Below are positions 3,715 through 61,965 of a stretch of 64,000 nucleotides of DNA, piece by piece (positions within the stretch are counted from its first letter, which is position 1; every line of letters starts with the position of its first letter). The DNA is from Escherichia phage ime09, in sequence record NC_019503.1; one strand, written 5' to 3'. Below the pieces are notes generated by a model. It saw nothing but the letters and a program-made list of their open reading frames with translations, had not been told where the DNA came from and ran no database searches. Made by a program: the position numbers and the translations under genes.

Positions 3715-5133
3715 TTATGGATAGGTATAGATGATACCAGTTTCTAAAGCAGTTTTATGAATGATGTATCCATTACGTGATTCTTGAACATCAACTTCTG
3801 GATAGTCTTTCATCATCTTCTGAAGAGTGTAACGATGCAGGTAGTATTTACTATCTGGATCTTCAGTTTTCCAATCTTTACCTTCTTCGGTCATTTTTTG
3901 GATTTCATCCATAACCCACCAACCGCACCAGATATAAGCCGAAGTACGATGTGGAAGAGGATGAACATAAGGCAATTCACCTTCTGGTTCTGGAGCAACT
4001 TTATCAGTTACCTGAACTTGACCTTCTGCTGTGATAGTTTTGCTATCATAATCAGTAGCAGTAACAGTTGCAGTAACTTCAATAGTTTGACTTCCAATAG
4101 ATGATGTATCAACCGTGTATACATTAGTTGACCCTTCTACTGGAGAAGAATCTTTCTTCCATGAATATTCGATTTGTGCTTCTTCTGGAGCATCCGTAAC
4201 ATTAGCAGTAAATGTAGCCGAAGCATCTTGCTGAACGTTAATAGAAGGAGGAGTCAATGTAACCTGTGGATTCATTGTTTTCTTATTAACAGTCAATGAT
4301 ACTTCATTAGAAGTAACTTCCTTTTCATTGTAATTTTCTGCAGTTACTTGAGCTACACACTTAACTGTTTTAGCTCCAACTGTGGTAGGAGTATAGTTAA
4401 ATGTAGTAGTAGTTTCTCCATCGACCAGAGAACCGTCAACATACCACTGATACGTAGCAGACGCTCCTGGTGGCTGTGAAGCCAAGGCAGCAGTAAATTG
4501 AACTGGGGTTCCAATTACCCCGGCAGCAGGATTAGCAGGAGTTACTGCCAAGGTAGTCGTCTGCGTCTTCTTATTAACTGTTAATGATACTTCATTAGAA
4601 GTAACGCTTAGTGTATCATAATCTGCCGCAGTTACTTGAGCTACACACTTGATTTTTTTAACTCCGCTTGTGTCAGGAGTGTAATTGAATGTAGCGTCAG
4701 TTGCTTCGTCTACAGGAGAACCGTCAACGTGCCATTGATACGTAGCGTTTGCACCTGATGGCTGTGAAGCTAAGGCAGCGGTAAATTCAATTGGAGTTCC
4801 AATCACTCCAGCATCAGGGCTACCAGGAGTTACAGCTAAAGTAGTTGTTTGTGTCTTATTTTGAACTGTGATAGTTGTACTAATTTCTGCTGTTTCAGGT
4901 TCAGATTCTGCAACTTGATTGGTTGCAACTACTTTAATAGTCTTTTGACCGGCAGGTCCTTTTAGTACATAACTAAAAGTTGCTGACGTTTCTTCCTGTG
5001 GAGCGTCGTCTACAGTCCAAGCATATGTAATAGGTCCATCTCCAGTTTGACCACTGGGTGTAGCAGTAAACTGCTGAGTCTGATCTATAACTCCAGTAGG
5101 TGTTTTAGGAGTTATATCAACTGTAAAAGCCAT
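3715..5133 (-). CDS. hoc: Highly immunogenic outer capsid protein Hoc, 472 aa with an extra Ig-like domain
   Basis: Repeated Ig-like modules (TLAVTP...YQW.VDGS...KCVAQVTA...EVSLTVNKKT) and position between 24.x and inh; T4 Hoc is 376 aa. Confidence 0.85.
   Translation of the reverse strand: MAFTVDITPKTPTGVIDQTQQFTATPSGQTGDGPITYAWTVDDAPQEETSATFSYVLKGPAGQKTIKVVATNQVAESEPETAEISTTITVQNKTQTTTLAVTPGSPDAGVIGTPIEFTAALASQPSGANATYQWHVDGSPVDEATDATFNYTPDTSGVKKIKCVAQVTAADYDTLSVTSNEVSLTVNKKTQTTTLAVTPANPAAGVIGTPVQFTAALASQPPGASATYQWYVDGSLVDGETTTTFNYTPTTVGAKTVKCVAQVTAENYNEKEVTSNEVSLTVNKKTMNPQVTLTPPSINVQQDASATFTANVTDAPEEAQIEYSWKKDSSPVEGSTNVYTVDTSSIGSQTIEVTATVTATDYDSKTITAEGQVQVTDKVAPEPEGELPYVHPLPHRTSAYIWCGWWVMDEIQKMTEEGKDWKTEDPDSKYYLHRYTLQKMMKDYPEVDVQESRNGYIIHKTALETGIIYTYP
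4291..4860 (-). repeat. Tandem ~285-bp direct repeat inside hoc encoding two near-identical Ig-like domains
   Basis: Protein residues ~92-186 and ~187-281 are highly similar; the underlying DNA blocks at roughly 4291-4575 and 4576-4860 align. Confidence 0.75.
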
Positions 5134-15911: not shown

Positions 15912-15914
15912 CAA

Positions 15915-15946
15915 TGGGGACCGAAAGGTCCCCATATTTTTATTTA
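15915..15946 (+). terminator. Intrinsic terminator after gene 54
   Basis: ggggacc-gaaa-ggtcccc followed by atatttttattt. Confidence 0.7.
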
Positions 15947-16230
15947 CGGAATGAAATAAAAGCAGCAACTGAAGCAACTAGACTGTCTTCAATATAAACT
16001 TCAATTTTTACCGGAGCTTCTGACTCAAATTTACCTGTTACTACACCCTGGAAAATGCTTTCAGTCTGTTCTGGCTTTAAAAAATTTTCAGAAGGAAAAA
16101 TTCCGAACTTTTTATCTGTTCCAAAAATTTTGATAAATTCATCATAAACTGCTTCATTAAAAGCGTTATCAGCAGGAATAACGCCTTCAACTACAAGTTC
16201 TTGACCTAAAAAGCGTAAAGAAGATTTCAT
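15940..16230 (-). CDS. Hypothetical protein (alt.-3 position)
   Basis: 96-aa ORF with an AGGA RBS 7 nt upstream of the ATG. Confidence 0.6.
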   Translation of the reverse strand: MKSSLRFLGQELVVEGVIPADNAFNEAVYDEFIKIFGTDKKFGIFPSENFLKPEQTESIFQGVVTGKFESEAPVKIEVYIEDSLVASVAAFISFRK

Positions 16231-16237
16231 TTTGTGT

Positions 16238-16291
16238 TCCTCATGTTATGTCAGTAAAACTATTGTAACACAACACGAGGGACTTGTAAAC
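16238..16291 (-). promoter_or_regulatory. Early-promoter/leader element copy A (GTTTAC -35, TACAAT -10) with a 13-bp hairpin overlapping the alt.-3 Shine-Dalgarno
   Basis: Matches 31848-31901 at 52 of 54 positions; arms 16239-16251 and 16268-16280 pair in the minus-sense RNA with 11 Watson-Crick plus 2 G-U pairs. Confidence 0.55.
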
Positions 16292-18348
16292 TACATCTTG
16301 AACTTTTTAGACATTCCGTTGATGTTAACCAAAGAAGCCAAGATTTGAGAAACTTCGTTTTCCTCTTCTTTTGATTCTTCTACAAGGAATTGATTAAACC
16401 CAGCCATTGGACGAACTTCACCAGTTTCCATTAGATGATCGCCATCATATACCGATTCTTCTAATTGTTCAGAAGGAGGAACGATTGTGCCTTCGATTAG
16501 ATACTTGTTATAAGCAGTTTCTTTCATCATGTACGTGCTTACTTTATTAATCTTCAACAAAATTCCACGCGGTAGAATAACTTCAGCTTCTGATGGAAAT
16601 CCTGATAAATGACCTGGAACGATAACTTTGATTCGCTCAGCCCCTTTAATTACCATACCTACGCTAGTTTCAGCATCTTCATTAGCATATGCAGAATGAC
16701 TACCCATATGCATTAAATCTTCAGCATCAACAGAACCTTCTCCTTCACCAGAAAATACTGCACCGGAATCATCTAGAGCCATATAGTTTTTACCATGCTC
16801 ACCGAAGATATTTGGTTTAAGCGATGTTGATACGAAGTTCTTGAAATAGAACATTTTATTTTCAATATTATGGCGTAAAGTTTTAAAAGTAACTTCTTGT
16901 CCACGATAAAGCGTAGTTCCTGGAGGAAGAACTGATCCTTTTGCGAATGCAGAATCCAGCGTCTCGATGTGTTTAATAGCTCGTTCCATGTATTCTTCAC
17001 GGGTAGAATCTGGTTTACCCAAGAGGAACGAGTTCATTTCAACATATGAATCTGCACAATAATCTTCAATTACATCAGACTCAGCCTGAGTCAGTCCTTT
17101 TGGAGTTACTTCGGTGCTTGCGTATTCATATGCCTGAGCAGCAGATTCATTAATCAATTTATAAATGCCATTCATGACAAATTGAATAATAGCTACTTTT
17201 TCGTCTGGCGTGGCTTTAGAACCTTTAACTAAATCATTGATAATTTTCTTAATAACATCAAAGCTATTAGAAATATTAATGTCAGCGAGATCGCTCAAAA
17301 TTTTATCGGTTTTATAATCAAAAAATTCTTTATTCTTTAAATATTCTTGAGAACCTTGATGTGTTATATCGCTCTGCAGTCTGATAGACGGATCACGTAA
17401 ACGTGCATGGGCCAATGCAATATGATTTCGGAAGCTTTCTAGTTCATAATCGTTAGATTTAAAACGAGAAGCACTTCTCATACCACCGATAGCTCCTTTG
17501 CCGAAGTTTGAACCAATCTGAATAACGCCAGAGTTCATTGGTCCTTCTGCTTTATATACCGGAACTTTAGATTCAAACTCTTGATATTTCTTGGCAGCGA
17601 AGCTATCACCCTGAAGTGAAGCATCGACAGTAGAATATTGAGCTTGTGCTGCTAATCGACGACTAATTTTAGTTTTCTGAATAACAGCTTGATCCGTGCG
17701 CTTATCATTTTCTAAGGCAATAGAAGCAGCAACAGCAACAGCTTTAGGAACAGCATTACCTGTTTTAACATCTACATAAACATCACCAACCTTTGATTCA
17801 ACTTTTGTGAATAACTCAGTTGAAATAGGAGGTACACCTGGAATGTCTTCTAAATTGGCATTTTTACGGTAAACCATAATATATGCATACTTTTTATCAT
17901 AATCCCAGATTTCCTTTAAAAGAACATATCGACCTGCTCCTTTAGTACGTACTAAACGGTCAGCAATAACTTGCATTTGACGAGCAGCGCCATTTGTTTT
18001 ACTTTTTAGTACGCGGAATAGGCATGCGTCAATTTTATACTGTTTCATTGTTTGAAGAGCAGTATCAAAAACCGCATTAATGACACCAATTGGATTTCCA
18101 CCCAAGTTTTTAAGTTTAACGAGCGATAGTTTCTCATTGACACCTATCATTACGATATGCATCATTTTATCGCCTGGCTTAACGTTTTTATTTGTATCAC
18201 CGCCAGAGGTGTATGTACAAAATCTAAATCCAGGAAGCACACTTTCTTCGCCGGCTTGAATAGCAAAAATTTGAGGTATTTTATGCTTAGGATTTAAGTT
18301 AACAACCGGCGCCGAAGCGCCGTCAAATAATTCTGTAATAAGTTCCAT
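16291..18348 (-). CDS. Alt-like ADP-ribosyltransferase, paralog 1 (685 aa)
   Basis: C-terminal R / STS / ExE motifs (LYRGQ, FVSTSL, EAEVILPRG); N-terminus MELITELFD shared with the adjacent paralog. Confidence 0.8.
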   Translation of the reverse strand: MELITELFDGASAPVVNLNPKHKIPQIFAIQAGEESVLPGFRFCTYTSGGDTNKNVKPGDKMMHIVMIGVNEKLSLVKLKNLGGNPIGVINAVFDTALQTMKQYKIDACLFRVLKSKTNGAARQMQVIADRLVRTKGAGRYVLLKEIWDYDKKYAYIMVYRKNANLEDIPGVPPISTELFTKVESKVGDVYVDVKTGNAVPKAVAVAASIALENDKRTDQAVIQKTKISRRLAAQAQYSTVDASLQGDSFAAKKYQEFESKVPVYKAEGPMNSGVIQIGSNFGKGAIGGMRSASRFKSNDYELESFRNHIALAHARLRDPSIRLQSDITHQGSQEYLKNKEFFDYKTDKILSDLADINISNSFDVIKKIINDLVKGSKATPDEKVAIIQFVMNGIYKLINESAAQAYEYASTEVTPKGLTQAESDVIEDYCADSYVEMNSFLLGKPDSTREEYMERAIKHIETLDSAFAKGSVLPPGTTLYRGQEVTFKTLRHNIENKMFYFKNFVSTSLKPNIFGEHGKNYMALDDSGAVFSGEGEGSVDAEDLMHMGSHSAYANEDAETSVGMVIKGAERIKVIVPGHLSGFPSEAEVILPRGILLKINKVSTYMMKETAYNKYLIEGTIVPPSEQLEESVYDGDHLMETGEVRPMAGFNQFLVEESKEEENEVSQILASLVNINGMSKKFKM

Positions 18349-18351
18349 GAT

Positions 18352-20448
18352 TTATCCTTGAACGAACTTGTAAGGCATGTTTGTAATATCTATGCAAGAC
18401 GCAATAATTCCAAGAGATGATTCTACTTTTTGTTTAACATTTGATGAAACAAATGATGCAAAGTCAACTCTGTCTTCTATTTCAATATCACCTGTCATTG
18501 CAACTACTTCACCAGTTTCCATTAGACGGTCACCGTCATAAATTACTGATTCGGTGAGTTCTTCCGTAGTCATAACTTCAGCTTGAATGAGTTTTGTATT
18601 ATTAGATGTTGTTCCGTCGTTATTAGAAGCATCAGTTATTTTATTGACTTTGACCATCAATCCGCGTGGTAGAATAACTTCAGCTTCTGTTGCTATTCCG
18701 AGACTTCCTGGATATACAACATTAACTTTATGAGCTCCATCAATTGCCCATCCTATTTGAACTTTAACGTATTCAGGATTTTCTTTATACGCTCTTATTT
18801 CATTTGGATTAATAGTTATTCCTTCTTCATTTTTATCAACTGTCAATTCATTACGAGCTTCTGGTTCTAAAAGACCAATACCAGCATGTGTAATTCCAAA
18901 ACGTCCAAAAATGATAGGAGTTAAAGAAGTAGATACAAAATTTCTGAAATAGAACACTTTATTTTTAACTAGTGCTTCGTATATAGGAGCAGTCATGCTT
19001 TGAGCACGATAAACTGTAATGCCTTCTGGTATACGGTCACCGTTTTCAAAAGCTGAATCTAAGTTATTTATAGCAGATTCAATTTCTTTTTCACTCATTA
19101 CATCATATCGTTCTGGATTGTAACGACCCAAAAGAAGATTATTGATGTCAGTATATCCTGAACCACAATACTCTCTAATGCCGCGCTTTTGTGATGGAGT
19201 ATATTTAGAACCATCACGGGCAATAGTAATATCAATCATTGGACCTGCACCAATTCCAGAAAAGCTATAAATCATTCGTTTGAGGAATTTAGTTTTTGCT
19301 GCGTTCCAGGAATTTTTAGTTATTTCTTCCCAGACTTCATCTGGCTGTCCTTTACGGGTTTTATTATGTTTATCAAGCCAATTATCTTTATATTCTTCAA
19401 AGAATTGATTAACGGCTGCTGCGTATTTCTCCAAACATTTTATTGAAGTAGTTGGTTCATTTTTAATCGCATTAAGAATTACATCTTTAATTTTTTCAGA
19501 AACTTCATTAACCTCACTTTTTGAAAAGAATTTATAATCATAGTGAAGTTCATCTGCAGTTCCTTCGGCAATGATTTTTGCTGCCTTAGTTTTAGAAGCT
19601 AATGAATTAATTCCAAGCTTCATTTCTTCTGCTTCGGGAATTAAAGGAGCTGTAGCAGGTTTATTGAAATTAGCTGCGGTAGATTCATACTTTTGGAATA
19701 ATTCACTTTCAAATCTAGAAGATTCCAATGACTGACTTTGTGCAATTGCTCTGCGGGAAATTTTAACTTTAACGATTACAGCTTGGTCAGAACGTTTATC
19801 GTTTTCTTGTGCAATAGATGCTGCAATTGCCTCATTTTTAGTTACTTGAGCTCCAGTATCTTTATTGATATAAACATCACCGACCTTCGATTCAACTTTA
19901 GTAAAGAGCTCGGTACTGATTTCCGGAACTCCTGGAATGTCTTCTAATGATACATTTTTGCGATGTATAAGAATATATGCATACTTTTTATCGTAATCCC
20001 AGAGTTCCTTAAGAAGGACGTATCTGCCGCCTGAACGGCTGCGGATAAGTCTATCAGCAATAACTTGAATTTGTCGAGCTTGACCAGCAGTTTTAGACTT
20101 AAGAATACGAAGCATACAGGCATCAATTTTATACTGACGCATTGTTTGCATTGCAACAGTAAAAACTGAATTGATGTAATTAATTGGGCTTGGACCGAGA
20201 CCTTTCAATTTAGCAATTGAACCTTTAGCAGTTAATGTAAAAGGAACAATATGCATCATTTTATCACCCATCTTTAAATCGCGATTAGTATCACCTCCAG
20301 ATGTATAGGTACATAAACGAAAGCCTGGTTGTTCAATTGCGTCATCAACATGAACTGAAAAAATTTGCGGTATTTTCTTCTTTGGATTTAAGTTTGTAAT
20401 CGGAAGAGTAGTATCTTCGTCAAATAATTCTGTAATGAGTTCCATCAT
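18352..20448 (-). CDS. alt: Alt ADP-ribosyltransferase, paralog 2 (698 aa)
   Basis: Motifs VYRAQ, FVSTSL, EAEVILPRG; position next to DNA ligase; candidate minus-strand late promoter 20469-20476. Confidence 0.8.
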   Translation of the reverse strand: MMELITELFDEDTTLPITNLNPKKKIPQIFSVHVDDAIEQPGFRLCTYTSGGDTNRDLKMGDKMMHIVPFTLTAKGSIAKLKGLGPSPINYINSVFTVAMQTMRQYKIDACMLRILKSKTAGQARQIQVIADRLIRSRSGGRYVLLKELWDYDKKYAYILIHRKNVSLEDIPGVPEISTELFTKVESKVGDVYINKDTGAQVTKNEAIAASIAQENDKRSDQAVIVKVKISRRAIAQSQSLESSRFESELFQKYESTAANFNKPATAPLIPEAEEMKLGINSLASKTKAAKIIAEGTADELHYDYKFFSKSEVNEVSEKIKDVILNAIKNEPTTSIKCLEKYAAAVNQFFEEYKDNWLDKHNKTRKGQPDEVWEEITKNSWNAAKTKFLKRMIYSFSGIGAGPMIDITIARDGSKYTPSQKRGIREYCGSGYTDINNLLLGRYNPERYDVMSEKEIESAINNLDSAFENGDRIPEGITVYRAQSMTAPIYEALVKNKVFYFRNFVSTSLTPIIFGRFGITHAGIGLLEPEARNELTVDKNEEGITINPNEIRAYKENPEYVKVQIGWAIDGAHKVNVVYPGSLGIATEAEVILPRGLMVKVNKITDASNNDGTTSNNTKLIQAEVMTTEELTESVIYDGDRLMETGEVVAMTGDIEIEDRVDFASFVSSNVKQKVESSLGIIASCIDITNMPYKFVQG

Positions 20449-24247: not shown

Positions 24248-24613
24248 TTAAATATCAAATTCATTAAGAACTACATCAAAGATCGCTTCAAGATGCTCAG
24301 GTTTAGCTCTGTTACTCAGAATATGACGAATCCAAGTTTTAACCAGAAGCTTGCGATTAACACCATTCCAGCAAGGATGAGTCCCTAAATCGCGTTGACG
24401 AAAATCATCATCCAAAGCAATTTTGAAGTTGGAACCTTCCATTGTGATTGAAACCGTGATGCCATTTTCAAATCGCATATAAACGTAGTTAGGAGTCATA
24501 TACTGTTCAATTTCGCATACTGATCCATTTTGATGTTTCCAAAGGCAAATAGTATCAATAGAACCTGCAATACCATTAGAAACATATTTACGTTCAAAGT
24601 TAATGTAGTTCAT
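24248..24613 (-). CDS. Hypothetical protein
   Basis: 121-aa ORF; early-promoter-like element upstream at about 24650-24685. Confidence 0.5.
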   Translation of the reverse strand: MNYINFERKYVSNGIAGSIDTICLWKHQNGSVCEIEQYMTPNYVYMRFENGITVSITMEGSNFKIALDDDFRQRDLGTHPCWNGVNRKLLVKTWIRHILSNRAKPEHLEAIFDVVLNEFDI

Positions 24614-24683
24614 TTTTATTCTCCGAGATGTTTAATTGCGGTACAGGTATATAATATCATATCCTGTACCAAAGTAAACTATT

Positions 24684-25052
24684 TTATGCAACTTTAATCC
24701 AATTATCTAAATTTAATTCACCTTTGGCTTTCATTTTTTCAATCAAGAGGTCAGCGGTAATACGACCATTTTGATACCACGTAACATCTTCAGAGTAACC
24801 AGTTTCTTTATCTTCATAAGTCTCACAGCGAATTTTACCAAGAATCAAAGTTTTTAATTCGTATGTATCTCCAGTAAAAAAGTTAGTTAACATTATTTTC
24901 CAAGAGAAGTCATCAGAAGGACCTTCAGGAGTCATGCAACCTACAAATTCAAATTGTTCTTTGTATAAGTGCCACTGAAGTTCTTTAGTTTCGATAGCTT
25001 TATAGCCGTCGTGATCTTTACCTTTGATGTATGAGTTAAGATTGATTTTCAT
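24684..25052 (-). CDS. Hypothetical protein
   Basis: 122-aa ORF; early-promoter-like element at about 25075-25115. Confidence 0.5.
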   Translation of the reverse strand: MKINLNSYIKGKDHDGYKAIETKELQWHLYKEQFEFVGCMTPEGPSDDFSWKIMLTNFFTGDTYELKTLILGKIRCETYEDKETGYSEDVTWYQNGRITADLLIEKMKAKGELNLDNWIKVA

Positions 25053-25127
25053 TTTATTCTCCTTTGTTTGTGTAAGATAATACTATCACAAAGGAACCAT
25101 ACTGTAAACAACTTTGTGCAATCTTTG

Positions 25128-27996: not shown

Positions 27997-28517
27997 GTTG
28001 ATCCCAGCTCCTTACTTTCAACGTTTTTAACTAATTTGACAGAAACTAATTCGGCATCTTGGGTAATCATTACCGGGCCTTCTTTATACTCTTCAAGATA
28101 TTCTAGAGCTTTCTTTTTAGCTTCTTCCTTCGTATCAGTTTGAGCATAGATATAAAACATACAACCAGTAATACCTACTACTTTCCACTTAATTTCTTTA
28201 TCAGTTTTAATTTCAAATTTACTGACAGAATCGTCTTTTTGAACTTCTTCGAAAAAAGAATATTCTAACATATAAGCAATTGAAAATAACGGGCTAACTT
28301 TATAGGATTCGCCCATTACATCAACAGCTTTATACCAACAGTCATCAATTTCGCGTTTAATGCTAATAACATTTTTCGCAGGATCTATTTTTACTTTAAA
28401 TGAATTTTCCCCAATAAACTGAGCAATTCGTTTATTAGCCCCGCAGGTTTCATTAAAAATATCTTTATATCCAGCTTTAAAGCGATAAACCTTATCTTCT
28501 TCAAACCATTCGCTCAT
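27990..28517 (-). CDS. Hypothetical protein
   Basis: 175-aa ORF; early-promoter-like element at about 28540-28585. Confidence 0.5.
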   Translation of the reverse strand: MSEWFEEDKVYRFKAGYKDIFNETCGANKRIAQFIGENSFKVKIDPAKNVISIKREIDDCWYKAVDVMGESYKVSPLFSIAYMLEYSFFEEVQKDDSVSKFEIKTDKEIKWKVVGITGCMFYIYAQTDTKEEAKKKALEYLEEYKEGPVMITQDAELVSVKLVKNVESKELGSTC

Positions 28518-28579
28518 TTCAATTTCCTCATTTGTTTTGGTAGAGCTATAATATCACAACTCTACCGTAAAGTAAACTG

Positions 28580-30996: not shown

Positions 30997-31346
30997 TTAG
31001 AAAGGTCCTGGATGTCTTCTGCGAACTTGTTGAAGGAGTTGTTGATTTGTTTTTCAACCAATCCTGGCTTATGAGCCACCACATCCGCCTTCTTTGCGTC
31101 TTTGCGCAGTTTTTCATTTTCACGCTCAATAGCAGCAATTGCCTCACGATTTTTATTATTCATCGCATCAATATAATTATACTGAATTCGCAAATTATTT
31201 AATGCTAAAGCGTTTTCATTGGCCGTTTTTGTAATTTCTACAACAGACGTTTCTAATCTTTCAATTTTATTTTTTAAAATTAAAGAAGTTCCGCCCAATG
31301 CAATTACAATTAATAACAAGCCTGTTGTCGTATTACTTAATTGCAT
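30993..31346 (-). CDS. Probable i-spanin (N-terminal TM helix plus coiled coil, Rz equivalent)
   Basis: N-terminal hydrophobic helix GLLLIVIALGGTSLIL followed by a charged, heptad-like region; overlaps the o-spanin start. Confidence 0.6.
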   Translation of the reverse strand: MQLSNTTTGLLLIVIALGGTSLILKNKIERLETSVVEITKTANENALALNNLRIQYNYIDAMNNKNREAIAAIERENEKLRKDAKKADVVAHKPGLVEKQINNSFNKFAEDIQDLSK

Positions 31347-31840
31347 AAAGTTTTAATAACCTCTATAATATCGTCTTGAGAAAGACCGTTAATTAAAATA
31401 TGATGTTCAGCCGGAGATTTAGAAATTTTAAAGCATGCCTCAACATCTTCTGCCATATCCGATGCGCTACGATTTGGATTACTAATTCCAAGACGGTGTT
31501 TTCCCGTCAAAGGATTAACGATGATATAGCATTTACAATTATTGATATGAACATTAGGTTGAGTCTGATTAATGAACACATCACAATCATATTTCGCAAG
31601 CTGATTTTCTAAAAAGACTTTCATCTCCTCAACCGCATCAGGAAGCATATCACGGGCTTGCTCAAGACGACGATTTCGATATTCTTTAATGGTCGTTTTC
31701 CGCTTGACTTGCTTAGCTAAATCTTTCTTAAGATCGGTGATATATCCAACTCGACGATTTCCTTTAAATACAGAAATCCCATCTGTAGTATCACCGTATG
31801 CTTCAACGACCATTTCAGTAGTAATAAGCTGTAAATCCAT
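31337..31840 (-). CDS. alc: Probable Alc (host transcription unfolding/termination protein)
   Basis: 167 aa from the second ATG (AGGA RBS 7 nt upstream); position between the pseT.x genes and rnlA. Confidence 0.65.
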   Translation of the reverse strand: MDLQLITTEMVVEAYGDTTDGISVFKGNRRVGYITDLKKDLAKQVKRKTTIKEYRNRRLEQARDMLPDAVEEMKVFLENQLAKYDCDVFINQTQPNVHINNCKCYIIVNPLTGKHRLGISNPNRSASDMAEDVEACFKISKSPAEHHILINGLSQDDIIEVIKTLCN

Positions 31841-31847
31841 CATAAAG

Positions 31848-31901
31848 TCCTCATGTTATGTCAGTAAGACTACTGTAACACAACACGAGGGACTTGTAAA
31901 C
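31848..31901 (-). promoter_or_regulatory. Early-promoter/leader element copy B with a hairpin overlapping the alc Shine-Dalgarno
   Basis: Near-identical to 16238-16291; GTTTAC -35 at 31896-31901 (minus); arms 31849-31861 and 31878-31890. Confidence 0.55.
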
Positions 31902-31904
31902 AGC

Positions 31905-33492
<1,588 letters not shown>

Positions 33493-39673: not shown

Positions 39674-39916
39674 TTAAACAGACTTTTTCACAATTTTCCA
39701 ATCAGCTTTAAACTGTTCAACATCAGAATGGTAAATCCAGAATCCTGCGCTTTCTCCATCCTCATAAAGAGGGCATCCATCACATTCATCTTCCCATCCC
39801 ATATCACGCAAAAGACGTTCAGCTTTTTCAACAAGTTCAGAATCTTTACCGATGATATTAAAATACCATTTACCTCTAACTTCTGAATCTTTAATGCTCT
39901 GACGTTGTAATCTCAT
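39674..39916 (-). CDS. Hypothetical protein (frd.2 position)
   Basis: 80-aa ORF; early-promoter-like element at about 39935-39975. Confidence 0.5.
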   Translation of the reverse strand: MRLQRQSIKDSEVRGKWYFNIIGKDSELVEKAERLLRDMGWEDECDGCPLYEDGESAGFWIYHSDVEQFKADWKIVKKSV

Positions 39917-39970
39917 TTTATTCTCCTTAGTTGATAGGGTAATAGTATCACACTACTACCCTTCTGTAAA

Positions 39971-40351
39971 CTACTTTTTGAAAGTTTTTCGCAAAAGTTC
40001 AATGATTTCATCTACATTGTTTTCGTCTACAACGCAGTGAATTTTTGTTACGCCAGAAACCTTGTCTTTGACTTCATCTTCTTCAGAAGTCGGTTCTTTA
40101 TACTCGCGAAAACAATGAAATTCATCTTCGCAAATTTCTAAAAGTCTATCTTTGAGGTAAAAATGCTTTCCATTAGCACATTCAATATGTTTTACCGCTT
40201 TAAATCCATTAGCAAAGAAAACTTCTTTAACTTCAAACCATCCGCCATTTTCTCGAATAATTTTAACTATTGACGCGTTGGATCGTGGGCTATAATTAAT
40301 AAATGTATCAATAAGTCTTGGAACAAGTTCATACTTTTTGCCAATATACAT
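39971..40351 (-). CDS. Hypothetical protein (frd.3 position)
   Basis: 126-aa ORF. Confidence 0.5.
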   Translation of the reverse strand: MYIGKKYELVPRLIDTFINYSPRSNASIVKIIRENGGWFEVKEVFFANGFKAVKHIECANGKHFYLKDRLLEICEDEFHCFREYKEPTSEEDEVKDKVSGVTKIHCVVDENNVDEIIELLRKTFKK

Positions 40352-44044: not shown

Positions 44045-47000
44045 ATGGCCGAGATTAAAAGAAAGTTCAGAGCAGAAGATGGTCTGGACGCAGGTGGCGA
44101 TAAAATAATCAACGTAGCTTTAGCTGATCGTGCCGTAGGAACTGACGGTGTTAACGTTGATTACCTAATTCAAGAAAACACAGTTCAACAATACGATCCA
44201 ACTCGTGGATATTTAAAAGATTTTGTAATCATTTATGATAACCGCTTTTGGGCTGCTATAAATGATATTCCAAAACCGGCAGGAGCTTTTAATAGCGGAC
44301 GCTGGAGAGCATTACGTACCGATGCTAACTGGATTACAGTCTCATCTGGTTCATATCAATTAAAATCTGGTGAAGCTATTTCGGTTAACACTGCAGCTGG
44401 TAATGATATTACATTTACTTTACCATCTACTCCAATTGACGGTGATACTATCGTTCTCCAAGACATTGGAGGAAAACCTGGAGTTAACCAAGTTTTAATT
44501 GTAGCTCCAGTGCAAAGTATTGTAAACTTCAGAGGCGAGCAAGTACGTTCAGTACTAATGACTCATCCAAAGTCACAGTTAGTTTTAATTTTTAGTAATC
44601 GTCTGTGGCAAATGTATGTAGCTGATTATAGTAGAGAAGCTGTAGTTGTAACACCAGCGAATACTTATCAAGCACAATCCAACGATTTTATCGTACGTAG
44701 ATTTACTTCTGCTGCACCGATAAATATTAAACTTCCGAGATTTGCTAATCACGGCGATATTATTAATTTCGTCGATTTGGATAAATTAAACCCTCTTTAT
44801 CATACAATTGTTACTACATATGATGAAACGACATCAGTGCAAGAAGATGGAACTCATTCCATTGAAGGCCGTACATCGATTGACGGTTTCTTGATGTATG
44901 ATGATAATGAGAAATTATGGAGATTATTTGACGGGGACAGTAAAGCACGTTTACGTATCATAACAACTAATTCAAACATTCGTCCAAATGAAGAAGTTAT
45001 GGTATTTGGTGCGAATAACGGAACAACTCAAACGATTGAGCTTCAGCTTCCAACTAATATTTCTGTTGGTGATACTGTTAAAATTTCCATGAATTACATG
45101 AGAAAAGGACAAACAGTTAAAATCAAAGCTGCCGGTGAAGATAAAATTGCTTCTTCAGTTCAATTGCTGCAATTCCCAAAACGTTCAGAGTATCCACCTG
45201 AAGCTGAATGGGTGACTGTTCAAGAATTAGTTTTTAACGGTGAAACTAATTATGTTCCAGTTTTACAACTTGCTTATATAGAAGATTCTGACGGAAAATA
45301 CTGGGTTGTACAACAAAACGTTCCAACCGTAGAAAGAGTTGATTCTTTAAACGATTCTACTAGAGCAAGATTAGGCGTAATTGCTTTAGCTACACAAGCG
45401 CAAGCTAATGTCGATTTAGAAAATTCTCCACAAAAAGAATTAGCAATTACTCCAGAAACATTAGCTAACCGTACTGCTACAGAAACTCGTAGAGGTATCG
45501 CAAGAATAGCAACCACTGCTCAAGTGAATCAGAACACCACATTCTCTTTTGCTGATGATATTATCATTACACCTAAAAAGCTGAATGAAAGAACTGCTAC
45601 AGAAACTCGTAGAGGTGTTGCTGAAATTGCTACGCAACAGGAAACTAATGCAGGTACTGATGATACTACAATCATCACTCCTAAAAAGCTTCAAGCTCGA
45701 CAAGGTTCTGAATCATTATCTGGTATTGTAACCTTTGTATCTACTGCAGGAGCTACTCCAGCTTCTAGTCGTGAATTAAATGGTACAAACGTTTATAATA
45801 AAAACACTAATAATTTAGTTGTTTCGCCTAAAGCTCTGGATCAGTATAAAGCTACTCCAACACAACAAGGTGCAGTAATTTTAGCAGTTGAAAGTGAAGT
45901 AATTGCTGGACAGAGCCAAGAAGGATGGGCAAATGCGGTTGTAACGCCAGAAACGTTACATAAAAAGACATCAACTGATGGAAGAATTGGTTTAATTGAA
46001 ATTGCTACGCAAAGTGAAGTTAATACAGGAACTGATTATACTCGTGCAGTCACTCCTAAAACTTTAAATGACCGTAAAGCAACTGAAAGTTTAAGTGGTA
46101 TAGCTGAAATTGCTACACAAGTTGAATTCGACGCAGGCGTCGACGATACTCGTATCTCTACACCATTAAAAATTAAAACTAGATTTGATAGTACTGATCG
46201 TACTTCTGTTGTTGCTCTATCTGGATTAGTTGAATCAGGAACTCTCTGGGACCATTATACCCTTAATATTCTTGAAGCAAATGAGACACAGCGTGGTACA
46301 CTTCGTGTAGCTACACAGGTTGAAGCTGCTGCAGGAACATTAGATAATGTTTTAATAACTCCTAAAAAGCTTTTAGGTACTAAATCTACTGAAGCACAGG
46401 AAGGCGTTATTAAAGTTGCAACTCAGTCTGAAACTGTGACTGGAACGTCAGCAAATACTGCTGTATCTCCAAAAAATTTAAAATGGATTGTGCAGAGTGA
46501 ACCTACTTGGGCAGCTACTACTGCGATAAGAGGCTTTGTTAAAACTTCATCCGGTTCAATTACATTCGTTGGTAATGATACAGTTGGTTCAACACAGTCG
46601 TTAGAATTATACGAGAAAAATAGCTATGCAGTATCACCATATGAATTAAACCGTGTATTAGCAAATTATTTGCCATTAAAAGCAAAAGCTGCTGATACAA
46701 ATTTATTGGATGGTCTAGATTCATCTCAGTTCATTCGTAGGGATATTGCACAGACAGTTAATGGTTCACTAACCTTAACCCAACAAACGAATCTGAGTGC
46801 CCCTCTTGTATCATCTAGTACTGCTACGTTTGGTGGATCAGTTTCGGCAAACAGCACATTAACTATTTCTAATACTGGAACGGCAACTCGTCTGATTTTT
46901 GAGAAAGGACCTCAAACTGGAACTAACCCAGTACAGACGATGACTATCAGAGTTTGGGGAAATCAGTACGGTGGCGGTTCAGATACAACACGTTCTACTG

Positions 47001-61066: not shown

Positions 61067-61180
61067 TCACATAAATCCAAAGTAAGCGTTTAATACATCA
61101 ATCATTAAAACGATTGGGAATATACTCAAAACTATTAGTATTATAACTACATTCCATATAGCTTTAACAATCTTTTTCAT
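61067..61180 (-). CDS. Small membrane protein (37 aa, MKKIVKAIWNVVIILIVLSIFPIVLMIDVLNAYFGFM)
   Basis: The ORF-track 82-aa ORF is trimmed because a GGAGG RBS and an early promoter (about 61195-61245) lie inside the extended reading frame. Confidence 0.35.
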   Translation of the reverse strand: MKKIVKAIWNVVIILIVLSIFPIVLMIDVLNAYFGFM

Positions 61181-61423
61181 TTTCTGTTCCTCCGTAGTTG
61201 ATAGGGTAATAATACCACAGAGGAACAGTCTTGTAAACAACTTTTTTAAAAATATTCGTAATAAATGTGAATACCAACTACTACCGCTGAAACTTGTGCA
61301 ACCCACCACGCACAAGCAATAAGTACAGAATTCAAAATTTTCATAATAACCTCATCACAAAAGTAAATGCTAAACAAATCAATGGAATACTAATTAACCA
61401 AACAAAACACCACCATAATGAAC

Positions 61424-61924: not shown

Positions 61925-61965
61925 GATAGTTGTATAGTACCACAGTCCTTGTGGTATGTAAACCG
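61925..61965 (-). promoter_or_regulatory. Early promoter (cassette copy 3)
   Basis: GTTTAC at 61958-61963 (minus) with a TATACA -10-like box; strongly similar to the 40661-40700 and 57895-57937 promoters. Confidence 0.55.

Follow-up and report, generated by a model that had tools for sequence, protein, structure and literature searches.

A repeated early-promoter cassette before alc and alt.-3 of T4-like phages: promoter nested in an inverted repeat and predicted occlusion of the Shine–Dalgarno sequence

A 54-nt element is situated upstream of both alc and alt.-3 in the window (the whole 64,000-nt stretch of DNA analysed here). It is best explained as an early σ70 promoter nested in an inverted repeat, the hairpin of which would bury the Shine–Dalgarno (SD) sequence of the gene downstream; the copy at alc would be ancestral, and that at alt.-3 would have been copied from it. 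We assign this explanation as a whole a probability of roughly 0.6. Its parts are not equally secure. We are highly confident that the element is a cassette comprising an early promoter and an inverted repeat under selection, and likewise that the alt.-3 copy arose by copying of the cassette, followed by conversion; the proposition that selection acts through occlusion of the SD on read-through RNA, which depends on predicted folds, is about evenly balanced.

The repeat, its promoter and the adjoining genes

Both copies are read on the minus strand. Copy B, GTTTACAAGTCCCTCGTGTTGTGTTACAGTAGTCTTACTGACATAACATGAGGA, runs from GTTTAC to GAGGA (31901 to 31848) in the intergenic region between rnlA and alc, and copy A (16291 to 16238) lies between an alt paralogue and alt.-3. 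The copies are identical at 52 of 54 positions, the two changes in copy A being TACAAT for TACAGT and AGTTTT for AGTCTT, and they were grouped by the repeat finder as family D12, with 96% identity. The resemblance breaks off sharply at each end. When the window was searched with up to three mismatches allowed, copies A and B were the sole matches, and none was expected on the basis of 100 dinucleotide shuffles.

The window derives from a Tequatrovirus (T4-like phage) and is ~98–99% identical to many T4-like phages. In a sensitive BLAST search, the 54-mer matched at 995 places, distributed over 498 public Tequatrovirus genomes, among them that of T4; the matches were assigned to T4-like phages by organism names. 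Two copies are present in each of the 60 Tequatrovirus genomes listed, and no copy beyond these two was found in any of the 60 or in the window. In the T4 genome the two copies precede alc and alt.-3 and are 1 base apart. The claim of the preliminary description that one and the same element stands before two genes is thereby borne out, and the search for additional copies that it had proposed ends at two per genome.

Each copy matches a σ70 promoter, with TTTACA, a 17-nt spacer, the TG of an extended −10 and either TACAGT (copy B) or TACAAT (copy A). The −35 element of copy B is at 31895–31900 (31896–31901 in the T4 early form, GTTTAC), and its −10 element, preceded by TG, is at 31872–31877, in the apical part of the hairpin described below. 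The corresponding positions in copy A are 16285–16290 for the −35 element and 16262–16267 for the −10 element, again with TG before it; all four elements are on the minus strand. Transcription from copy B is predicted to start at 31865 (minus strand), an A seven nt past the −10 element, by analogy with the cc(c/t)tATCAAC of the other early promoters of the window. The equivalent position in copy A is 16255, and those in T4 are about 136318 (alc) and 123057 (alt.-3). The start sites of both copies are thus putative, having been placed by promoter alignment.

A 'predicted early promoter' is annotated at the alc copy in GenBank record LR215724.1, and a T4-early-like promoter, together with an overlapping predicted rho-independent terminator, is annotated at the alt.-3 copy in MZ726795.1. 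The T4 reference records NC_000866 and AF158101 contain no promoter features. The annotations in these relatives, and the TTTACA-17-TACAGT/TACAAT arrangement with its TG, support the original characterization of the element as a promoter plus leader. In T4 omics data (PMC9697503, supplement), alc and alt.-3 are early in both RNA and protein, rnlA is early in RNA and late in protein, and alt.-1 and alt.-2 are middle in RNA. This timing is compatible with a new early transcription unit beginning at each element.

The GTTTAC −35, the TGn and the −10 are common to all early promoters, and the similarity between the two copies could be regarded as merely that of the generic T4 early-promoter consensus, or as chance. 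Copies A and B are two of 12 GTTTAC promoters on this strand of the window. The other ten have in common with them the −35, the TGn/−10 and scattered bases, and nothing more; they differ all through the spacer and leader. The 54-nt identity is, therefore, not a generic consensus. The 52/54 identity, for which no chance match was obtained, and the presence of the element at two places in every listed Tequatrovirus genome argue in the same direction, and we consider this explanation refuted, with a probability close to nil.

The published consensus for T4 early promoters (the UP/GTTTAC/TGn/TAnnnT 'uber' promoters; PMC2988021) is nevertheless matched by the element in its GTTTAC, TGn, TAnnnT and 17-nt spacing. 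The A/T-rich stretch upstream of copy B, inside the end of rnlA, is a further point of likeness. However, that consensus leaves the spacer and leader unspecified, and it is these parts, lying outside the consensus, that make copies A and B nearly identical and self-complementary.

The rnlA gene (gene 63; 31905–33029, minus strand) ends with a TAA codon at 31905–31907, 3 nt upstream of copy B, and alc lies downstream, as the preliminary description had placed them. The full-length alt paralogue upstream of copy A (16291–18348, minus strand) ends with a TAG codon at 16291–16293 that overlaps the first base of the copy, within GTTTAC; in T4, this paralogue has decayed to alt.-1 and alt.-2. Copy A adjoins this variable gene, whereas copy B is flanked by the conserved rnlA and alc in all genera examined.

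The coding sequence of alt.-3 (96 aa; 15940–16230, minus strand) begins with an ATG 8 nt after the GAGGA of copy A. At alc, the GAGGA (31852–31848) is 4 nt ahead of a first ATG (31841–31843) and 7 nt ahead of a second, from which a coding sequence of 167 aa plus stop extends (31337–31840, minus strand). It had been suggested from the spacing that the second ATG begins a 167-aa Alc. Two further observations favour that assignment: in other genera, Alc starts with M-[ND]-[LM]-Q from a single ATG that aligns with the second one, and in two Tequatroviruses (UFV10 and 11B_SA_NWU) the first ATG is replaced by ATA.

The predicted hairpin and its conservation at alc

The 18 nt that follow GTTTAC have their complement in the leader and SD, so that RNA reading through the element is predicted to fold into a long hairpin. 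In copy B, the promoter spacer, AAGUCC-C-UCGUGUUGUGU (31878–31895, minus strand), forms the 5′ arm. It pairs, as AAGUCC-(C)-UCGUGUUGUGU, with the 3′ arm, ACAUAACAUGA-GGACUU (31845–31861, minus strand), within which the SD GAGGA is found at 31848–31852; there is also a small helix at the apex, around the −10 element. In copy A, the 5′ arm is GU-C-CCUCGUGUUGUGUUA (16266–16283, minus strand) and the 3′ arm is UGACAUAACAUGAGG-A-AC (16236–16253, minus strand), with the GAGGA at 16238–16242 inside it. The predicted folding energies are −28.6 kcal/mol for copy B at alc (z = −5.3) and −20.8 kcal/mol for copy A at alt.-3 (z = −3.2). Copy A retains the 5′ AAGUC but not the outer GGACUU with which this segment pairs in copy B, and its modelled hairpin is a shortened and weaker form of the one at alc.

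In the minimum-energy fold of each copy, every base of the SD is paired. For read-through RNA, the energy needed to open the SD–AUG region, calculated over the ensemble, is 14.0 kcal/mol at alc and 12.3 kcal/mol at alt.-3; for RNA from the element's own promoter it is 4.3 kcal/mol at alc and 2.0 kcal/mol at alt.-3. For structures at a ribosome-binding site (RBS), a difference of ~10 kcal/mol predicts a very large fall in initiation. The promoter-initiated leaders fold at −5.0 (alc) and −2.4 (alt.-3) kcal/mol, no better than shuffled sequences. Because own-promoter RNA does not contain the 5′ arm, occlusion would be possible solely on transcripts begun upstream. These predictions agree with the earlier designation of the SD as occluded, in that it would be enclosed in a strong hairpin, the 5′ arm of which is formed by the promoter spacer. 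No Rfam family was matched anywhere in the window at the gathering threshold.

Conservation was assessed in rnlA–alc intergenic sequences from nine phages outside Tequatrovirus and from 40 IMG/VR loci identified by means of an alignment of Alc. An IMG/VR scan with the 14-mer ACATAACATGAGGA gave 101 matched stretches, most of them unrelated chance matches; a handful of T4-like contigs were useful. Among 33 distinct alc sequences, representing ~17 lineages, GTTTAC (−35) and the ATG are 60–64 nt apart without exception. Pairing of the spacer with the leader/SD is apparent in most lineages, and the sequences that pair differ, for example UCUCCAUUUGGUU/AACCAAAUGGAGA, CCUCAUCAG/CUGAUGAGG and AACCUCUCAUUUU/AAAAUGAGAGGUU.

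An attempt to fit all 33 sequences upstream of alc to one consensus structure was given up: the stem registers shift by 1–2 nt between lineages, and a comparison of cognate with non-cognate duplexes, as well as an in-register subset, was therefore used instead. In 13 of the 17 lineage groups, every spacer formed a better duplex with its own leader (−15 to −24 kcal/mol) than with any leader from another lineage. In the in-register subset (10 sequences), 92.9% of the cells of a 17-bp helix were paired, versus 37–46% when the partner was slid, a contrast somewhat inflated by the fact that the helix was taken from one member sequence. Changes on both sides were observed at 4 of the 17 pairs, and the observed covariation score was attained by none of 500 shuffles.

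The SD is within the stem, with the 3′ arm ending exactly on it, in 12 of the 17 lineage groups. Other lineages have a hairpin that covers the −10 element without the SD (L010, L036 and L030/L047), a spacer-internal hairpin alone (L007/L034) or no hairpin (L048). Occlusion of the SD is, therefore, kept in most lineages but not in all. On this comparative evidence, the promoter-in-hairpin layout at alc is ancestral and recurs in Tevenvirinae lineages with co-varying arms. The preliminary description had allowed that the similarity might prove to be a promoter consensus with no stem conservation; the alc stem, kept with compensatory changes across genera, answers that objection.

Nested hairpins are not confined to the two copies. 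Within the window, a spacer-to-leader hairpin occurs at 7 of the 12 GTTTAC promoters. The SD is buried at four of these (61238, 31901, 16291 and, weakly, 25109) and left untouched at three. A palindrome inside the spacer is found at three further GTTTAC promoters.

The mechanism that we propose is as follows. An early σ70 promoter would be nested in the inverted repeat, in the order −35, 17-nt spacer, TGn/−10, ~21-nt leader, GAGGA and start codon. Read-through RNA, arriving from rnlA or the alt paralogue, would carry both arms and form a hairpin of 17–22 bp that buries the SD, and alc and alt.-3 would be poorly translated from such transcripts. RNA from the element's own promoter would begin in the loop, without the 5′ arm, and its SD would be free. 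The downstream gene would in this way be tied to its own early promoter and translated only early. The logic would be that of the T4 genes e, soc, 49 and I-TevI, with an early promoter in place of a late one. That the hairpin forms in vivo and blocks translation is suggested by the modelled energies. In its broadest form, the proposal would be of a gate throughout the Tevenvirinae, whereby Alc (and in Tequatrovirus also Alt.-3) is made solely from nested-promoter transcripts in the first minutes of infection, read-through RNA remaining untranslated and perhaps being subject to Rho-dependent polarity; we give this form slightly less than an even chance.

In the main rival explanation, the hairpin would be chiefly a transcript-boundary element, that is, an attenuator or terminator, or a 3′-end stabilizer for the rnlA or alt RNA. 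It would then be laid over the next promoter because the intergenic space is just ~60 nt, and its pairing with the SD would be incidental. Such an interpretation has been published for the promoter-early stem-loop (PeSL) cassettes of T4-like phages: in both papers, a terminator/attenuator role is proposed for the stem-loops (Arbiol et al. 2010, PMC2839356; Comeau et al. 2014, PMC4122927), and a PeSL stem-loop of RB49 cut lacZ expression like a strong terminator (PMC2839356). The copy A hairpin is itself annotated as a rho-independent terminator, a prediction, in MZ726795.1. A boundary role is also favoured by the lineages that keep a −10 hairpin without the SD, by the three nested hairpins of the window that do not touch the SD, and by the alt.-3 hairpins of other genera, which are confined to the spacer.

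However, a terminator scan revealed no terminator-like site or U-tract at 31600–32100 or at the copy A element, and the tails that follow the hairpins, CUUUAUGAUG and ACACAAAAUG, have no U-run. An intrinsic (rho-independent) terminator was rejected, as neither site combines a G+C-rich stem with a U-run. The tails after the alc hairpin are A-rich in most genera, and the stems are AU/GU-rich, unlike the polyG/polyC type that was tested in RB49. Moreover, a boundary role needs no 3′ arm that ends exactly on the SD, as it does in the majority of lineage groups. We consider it unlikely that the hairpin serves mainly as a transcript boundary.

The inverted repeat could also act in DNA, either as an operator bound by a dimeric protein or by forming a cruciform with an effect on promoter activity. 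Consistent with this idea, the sense and antisense strands fold equally across the 17 lineages (−18.5 versus −18.0 kcal/mol; Wilcoxon p = 0.55), most pairs being Watson–Crick. The Tequatrovirus stem, on the other hand, folds at −25.7 kcal/mol in the sense and −17.9 kcal/mol in the antisense strand, and contains two G·U pairs and a bulge, which are mismatches in DNA and in the other strand. The resulting G·U versus A·C strand asymmetry was considered as a general proof of action at the RNA level and was set aside, as it is found in Tequatrovirus alone and the strands of other lineages fold equally.

A further argument against action in DNA is that the arms differ wholly between genera, and between promoters of one genome, and yet their complementarity is kept, which fits a nucleic-acid helix and not a protein site. 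In addition, the loops are 12–20 nt long, a size unfavourable for cruciform extrusion. Operator and cruciform were rejected, since the arms vary freely and still remain complementary, and a function at the DNA level must be considered very improbable.

Origin of the alt.-3 copy

In five other genera (represented by Dhakavirus, a Mosigvirus-like phage, Marfavirus, Karamvirus and Kanagawavirus), alt.-3 is preceded by a GTTTAC promoter with a short spacer-internal hairpin and a free ATGAGGA SD. With these five examined, the alc-type element was seen at alt.-3 in Tequatrovirus alone. The repeat stops directly after GAGGA, inside the stem, and its ends coincide with GTTTACA and ATGAGGA, motifs already present in the ancestral alt.-3 promoter. 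The simplest reading of these sequences is that the alc cassette replaced the alt.-3 promoter in an ancestor of Tequatrovirus by microhomology recombination. The crossovers between the two cassettes would have fallen in GTTTACA and ATGAGGA, and the copies would still be exchanging sequence.

Variants were compared across 25 copies, drawn from 13 genomes or contigs. G29A and G32A, which are linked, were observed in copy A of T2, EP01 and L084, in copy B of 11B_SA_NWU, and in both copies of UFV10; in the window, T27C is present in both copies. Paralogous copies are 0–4 differences apart, approximately the same divergence as that of orthologous copies. Given that the alc layout is widespread, that the alt.-3 copy is truncated and restricted to Tequatrovirus, and that haplotypes are shared, the alt.-3 copy was probably derived from the alc copy, with later gene conversion. 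The direction of copying, from alc to alt.-3, is that to which these sequence comparisons point.

The preliminary description had taken two copies before different genes as a sign of a shared regulatory module rather than chance. It remains correct that the same element occurs twice and not by chance, but copying and gene conversion explain the pair better than does a need for co-regulation.

A parallel event is seen in one Dhakavirus-like genome, in which alc and alt.-3 have an identical 29-nt leader and different spacers, the alc spacer still pairing with the SD.

With regard to the stem, positions 41–54 (the 3′ arm and SD) are invariant in all 25 copies. The changes in the 5′ arm, which are small in number, mostly preserve pairing: G16A, in 5 sequences, converts a G·U to an A-U pair, and C15T converts a C-G to a U·G pair. 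Further 5′-arm changes are located in a slippable CCC bulge. Two variants weaken the stem: G18A, which is clearly disruptive, was seen in a single copy A, and GT9-10AC affects the outer stem in copy B of DalCa.

These data bear on whether copy A is a by-product of recombination, with a hairpin that has no selected role at alt.-3 and a near-identity to copy B that stems from youth and conversion. Such an origin would be in keeping with the restriction of the alc-type element at alt.-3 to Tequatrovirus, the truncated stem of copy A (−20.8 versus −28.6 kcal/mol), the similar divergence of paralogues and orthologues, the haplotypes common to both copies, and the comparable alc/alt.-3 leader swap in the Dhakavirus-like genome. 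However, the leftover stem of copy A would still require ~12 kcal/mol to open, and the changes in its 5′ arm mostly preserve pairs or lie in the bulge. We regard this account as somewhat unlikely; it is limited to copy A, and is compatible with the main explanation, predicted SD occlusion from a nested early promoter, for copy B.

Relation to known promoter–hairpin systems

PeSL cassettes, as laid out in the two papers cited above (PMC2839356; PMC4122927), comprise an upstream stop codon, σ70-like −35 and −10 elements, a stem-loop between these or over the −10, and an SD with a start codon. They are repeated and recombinogenic, shuffling promoters and leaders between genes. The element described here has the same features. 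Its promoter is in a short intergenic region right after a stop codon (3 nt upstream of copy B, overlapping copy A), and its stable stem-loop (−28.6 and −20.8 kcal/mol) has the 5′ arm in the promoter spacer. An SD and start are found at the 3′ end of the cassette, with GAGGA 7 nt (alc) or 8 nt (alt.-3) before the ATG. It is also repeated within the genome and appears to be a substrate for recombination, as judged from the two copies, the shared haplotypes and the Dhakavirus-like leader swap.

There are differences as well. The stem here spans the region from spacer to SD, a layout found in none of the five positional subclasses of PeSLs. The element has neither a U-tract nor a G/C-rich stem. 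PeSLs are located preferentially in hyperplastic regions beside variable ORFs; the alc copy is between conserved genes, outside any hyperplastic ORFan region, and its structure is kept across genera. These differences notwithstanding, the alc/alt.-3 element is a member of the PeSL class, and these two sites may already be included in the published PST/T4 PeSL list. That list aside, a literature search found no paper on these two sites and nothing specific on T4 start maps or on the structure of the alc and alt.-3 leaders. The word 'translation' does not occur in the 2010 PeSL paper (PMC2839356).

In T4, the genes e, soc, 49 and I-TevI each have a promoter nested in an RBS-sequestering helix, the RBS being freed on the short transcript alone (PMC3014915, section 29). 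These hairpins have experimental support and are conserved among related phages; the review does not include alc or alt.-3, and all of its nested-promoter examples are late (PMC3014915). The present element resembles them in that the promoter is inside the hairpin: the −10 is apical, the predicted +1 falls within the loop, and RNA begun there would be without the 5′ arm. It resembles them, too, in the predicted pairing of the SD on upstream-initiated transcripts, and covariation supports the stem at alc. Blocking of the SD on the long transcript is experimentally supported for e, soc, 49 and I-TevI, and is a prediction here. The late genes use a gp55-type promoter, TATAAATA, a motif absent from both copies, whereas the element has the early σ70 form GTTTAC ... 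TAnnnT. Translation of the late genes is delayed until late; the predicted effect here is the reverse, translation being allowed while early promoters fire.

If the gating is real, one device, a promoter within an RBS-sequestering helix, serves both temporal directions in T4-like phages, with late-only e, soc, 49 and I-TevI on one side and early-only alc, as the early mirror image of the late switch, on the other. Some of the 'terminators' lying over early promoters would then be translational insulators between tightly packed transcription units, and a subclass of PeSL stem-loops now read as terminators would have a translational function. The drawing of early operons, the reuse of cassettes in phage engineering, and the view of PeSL recombination and gene conversion as a means of rewiring expression would all be affected. 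The novelty is modest, the component parts being known and the site being already annotated in part in GenBank, and the value is incremental, that of a well-supported comparative case rather than a new kind of system. Set beside the known systems, the element belongs with the PeSL cassettes and, by prediction, works like an e-type switch with an early promoter.

Spacer-leader complementarity and spacer palindromes at early promoters

In addition to copies A and B, the promoter/leader repeats upstream of alt.-3 and alc, complementarity between the promoter spacer and the leader was found at five further GTTTAC early promoters of the window, all on the minus strand. At promoter 61238 (named, like the others, by the position of its -35 element; 61178-61238), the arms CUGUUCCUCUGUGG and CUACGGAGGAACAG are predicted to form a hairpin of -23.2 kcal/mol in which the ribosome-binding sequence (SD) would be buried. 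The SD of promoter 25109 (25050-25109; arms UCCUUUGU and ACAAAGGA) would be buried weakly. For promoters 39971 (39914-39971), 28577 (28515-28577) and 24679 (24611-24679), the modelled hairpin encloses the -10 element and start region, and leaves the SD free.

A separate class of promoters in the window carries a short palindrome, e.g. CCACAAGGACUGUGG or CAUAAAGCUUUAUG, situated wholly within the spacer between the -35 and -10 elements. These promoters, with -35 elements at 61963, 57935 and 40699 on the minus strand, correspond to repeat families D2 and D3. A long, conserved A/T-rich block lies upstream of them, and the D3 promoters are preceded by a G+C-rich terminator hairpin. In other genera, alt.-3 has a promoter of this spacer-palindrome class.

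The alc start codon and associated mini-ORFs

The alc start region of phages UFV10 and 11B_SA_NWU (OP555981.1 and OR062527.1; L161 and L162) reads CTTTATAATGG, natural variants in which the first of the two ATGs is replaced by ATA. This sets the start of alc at the second ATG.

In both copies A and B, an AUG within the 3′ arm of the stem opens a mini-ORF that ends in UGA, a stop codon sharing bases with the main start codon (AUGA). On the minus strand, these mini-ORFs lie at 31841-31854 for copy B (AUGAGGACUUUAUGA, MRTL*) and at 16227-16244 for copy A (AUGAGGAACACAAAAUGA, MRNTK*). Neither mini-ORF has an SD in front of it, and they may therefore be a by-product of CAU/AUG pairing in the stem.

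Terminator-like hairpins and direct repeats

A perfect G+C-rich hairpin, ATGGGGACCGAAAGGTCCCCAT, flanked by T-runs on both strands, is situated at 15914-15935 between gene 54 and alt.-3, which are convergent, and looks like a bidirectional intrinsic terminator. Similar hairpins, of the type GGGGCCGAAGCCCC, were observed at 2106, 3693, 24222, 62818 and 63035 (families D6, D7 and D17).

Direct repeats, tandem or dispersed, were also noted at 4277-4869 and 45446-46371, apparently within coding regions. Family D1/D19 has a 251-nt unit with a spacing of 288 nt and 78% identity, and D5/D11 has units of 68 and 33 nt; both probably represent repeated protein modules of structural genes.

alc and alt regions in other phages

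An identical 29-nt leader, CCTTACACAAACATGAGGAGAACATTATG, precedes both alc and alt.-3 in the Dhakavirus-like genome IMGVR_UViG_2706795356_000001 (L165, L167), behind different spacers, and is also situated 5′ of an unrelated gene (protein start MINTFRKYGE) in two other contigs (L166, L169). The occurrence of this leader behind different spacers and before different genes shows that early-gene leaders are shuffled as modules. In three IMG/VR sequences (L022, L023, L049) and Gaprivervirus RZ (L005), rnlA and alc are separated by an additional ORF or by a terminator hairpin rich in G+C, and the alc SD is predicted to lie within a leader-only hairpin, GGUUCCAUCA...UGAUGAGGACC. In this modelled hairpin, the same alc SD is paired in another way.

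Upstream of copy A, two full-length Alt-like ADP-ribosyltransferase genes are arranged in tandem on the minus strand (16291-18348 and 18352-20448; 685 and 698 aa), and their DNA similarity is apparent as repeat families D4, D9, D10 and D15. Both genes are retained in T2, DalCa, EP01, UFV10 and 11B_SA_NWU; the downstream copy of T4 is present only as its decayed remnants, alt.-1 and alt.-2.
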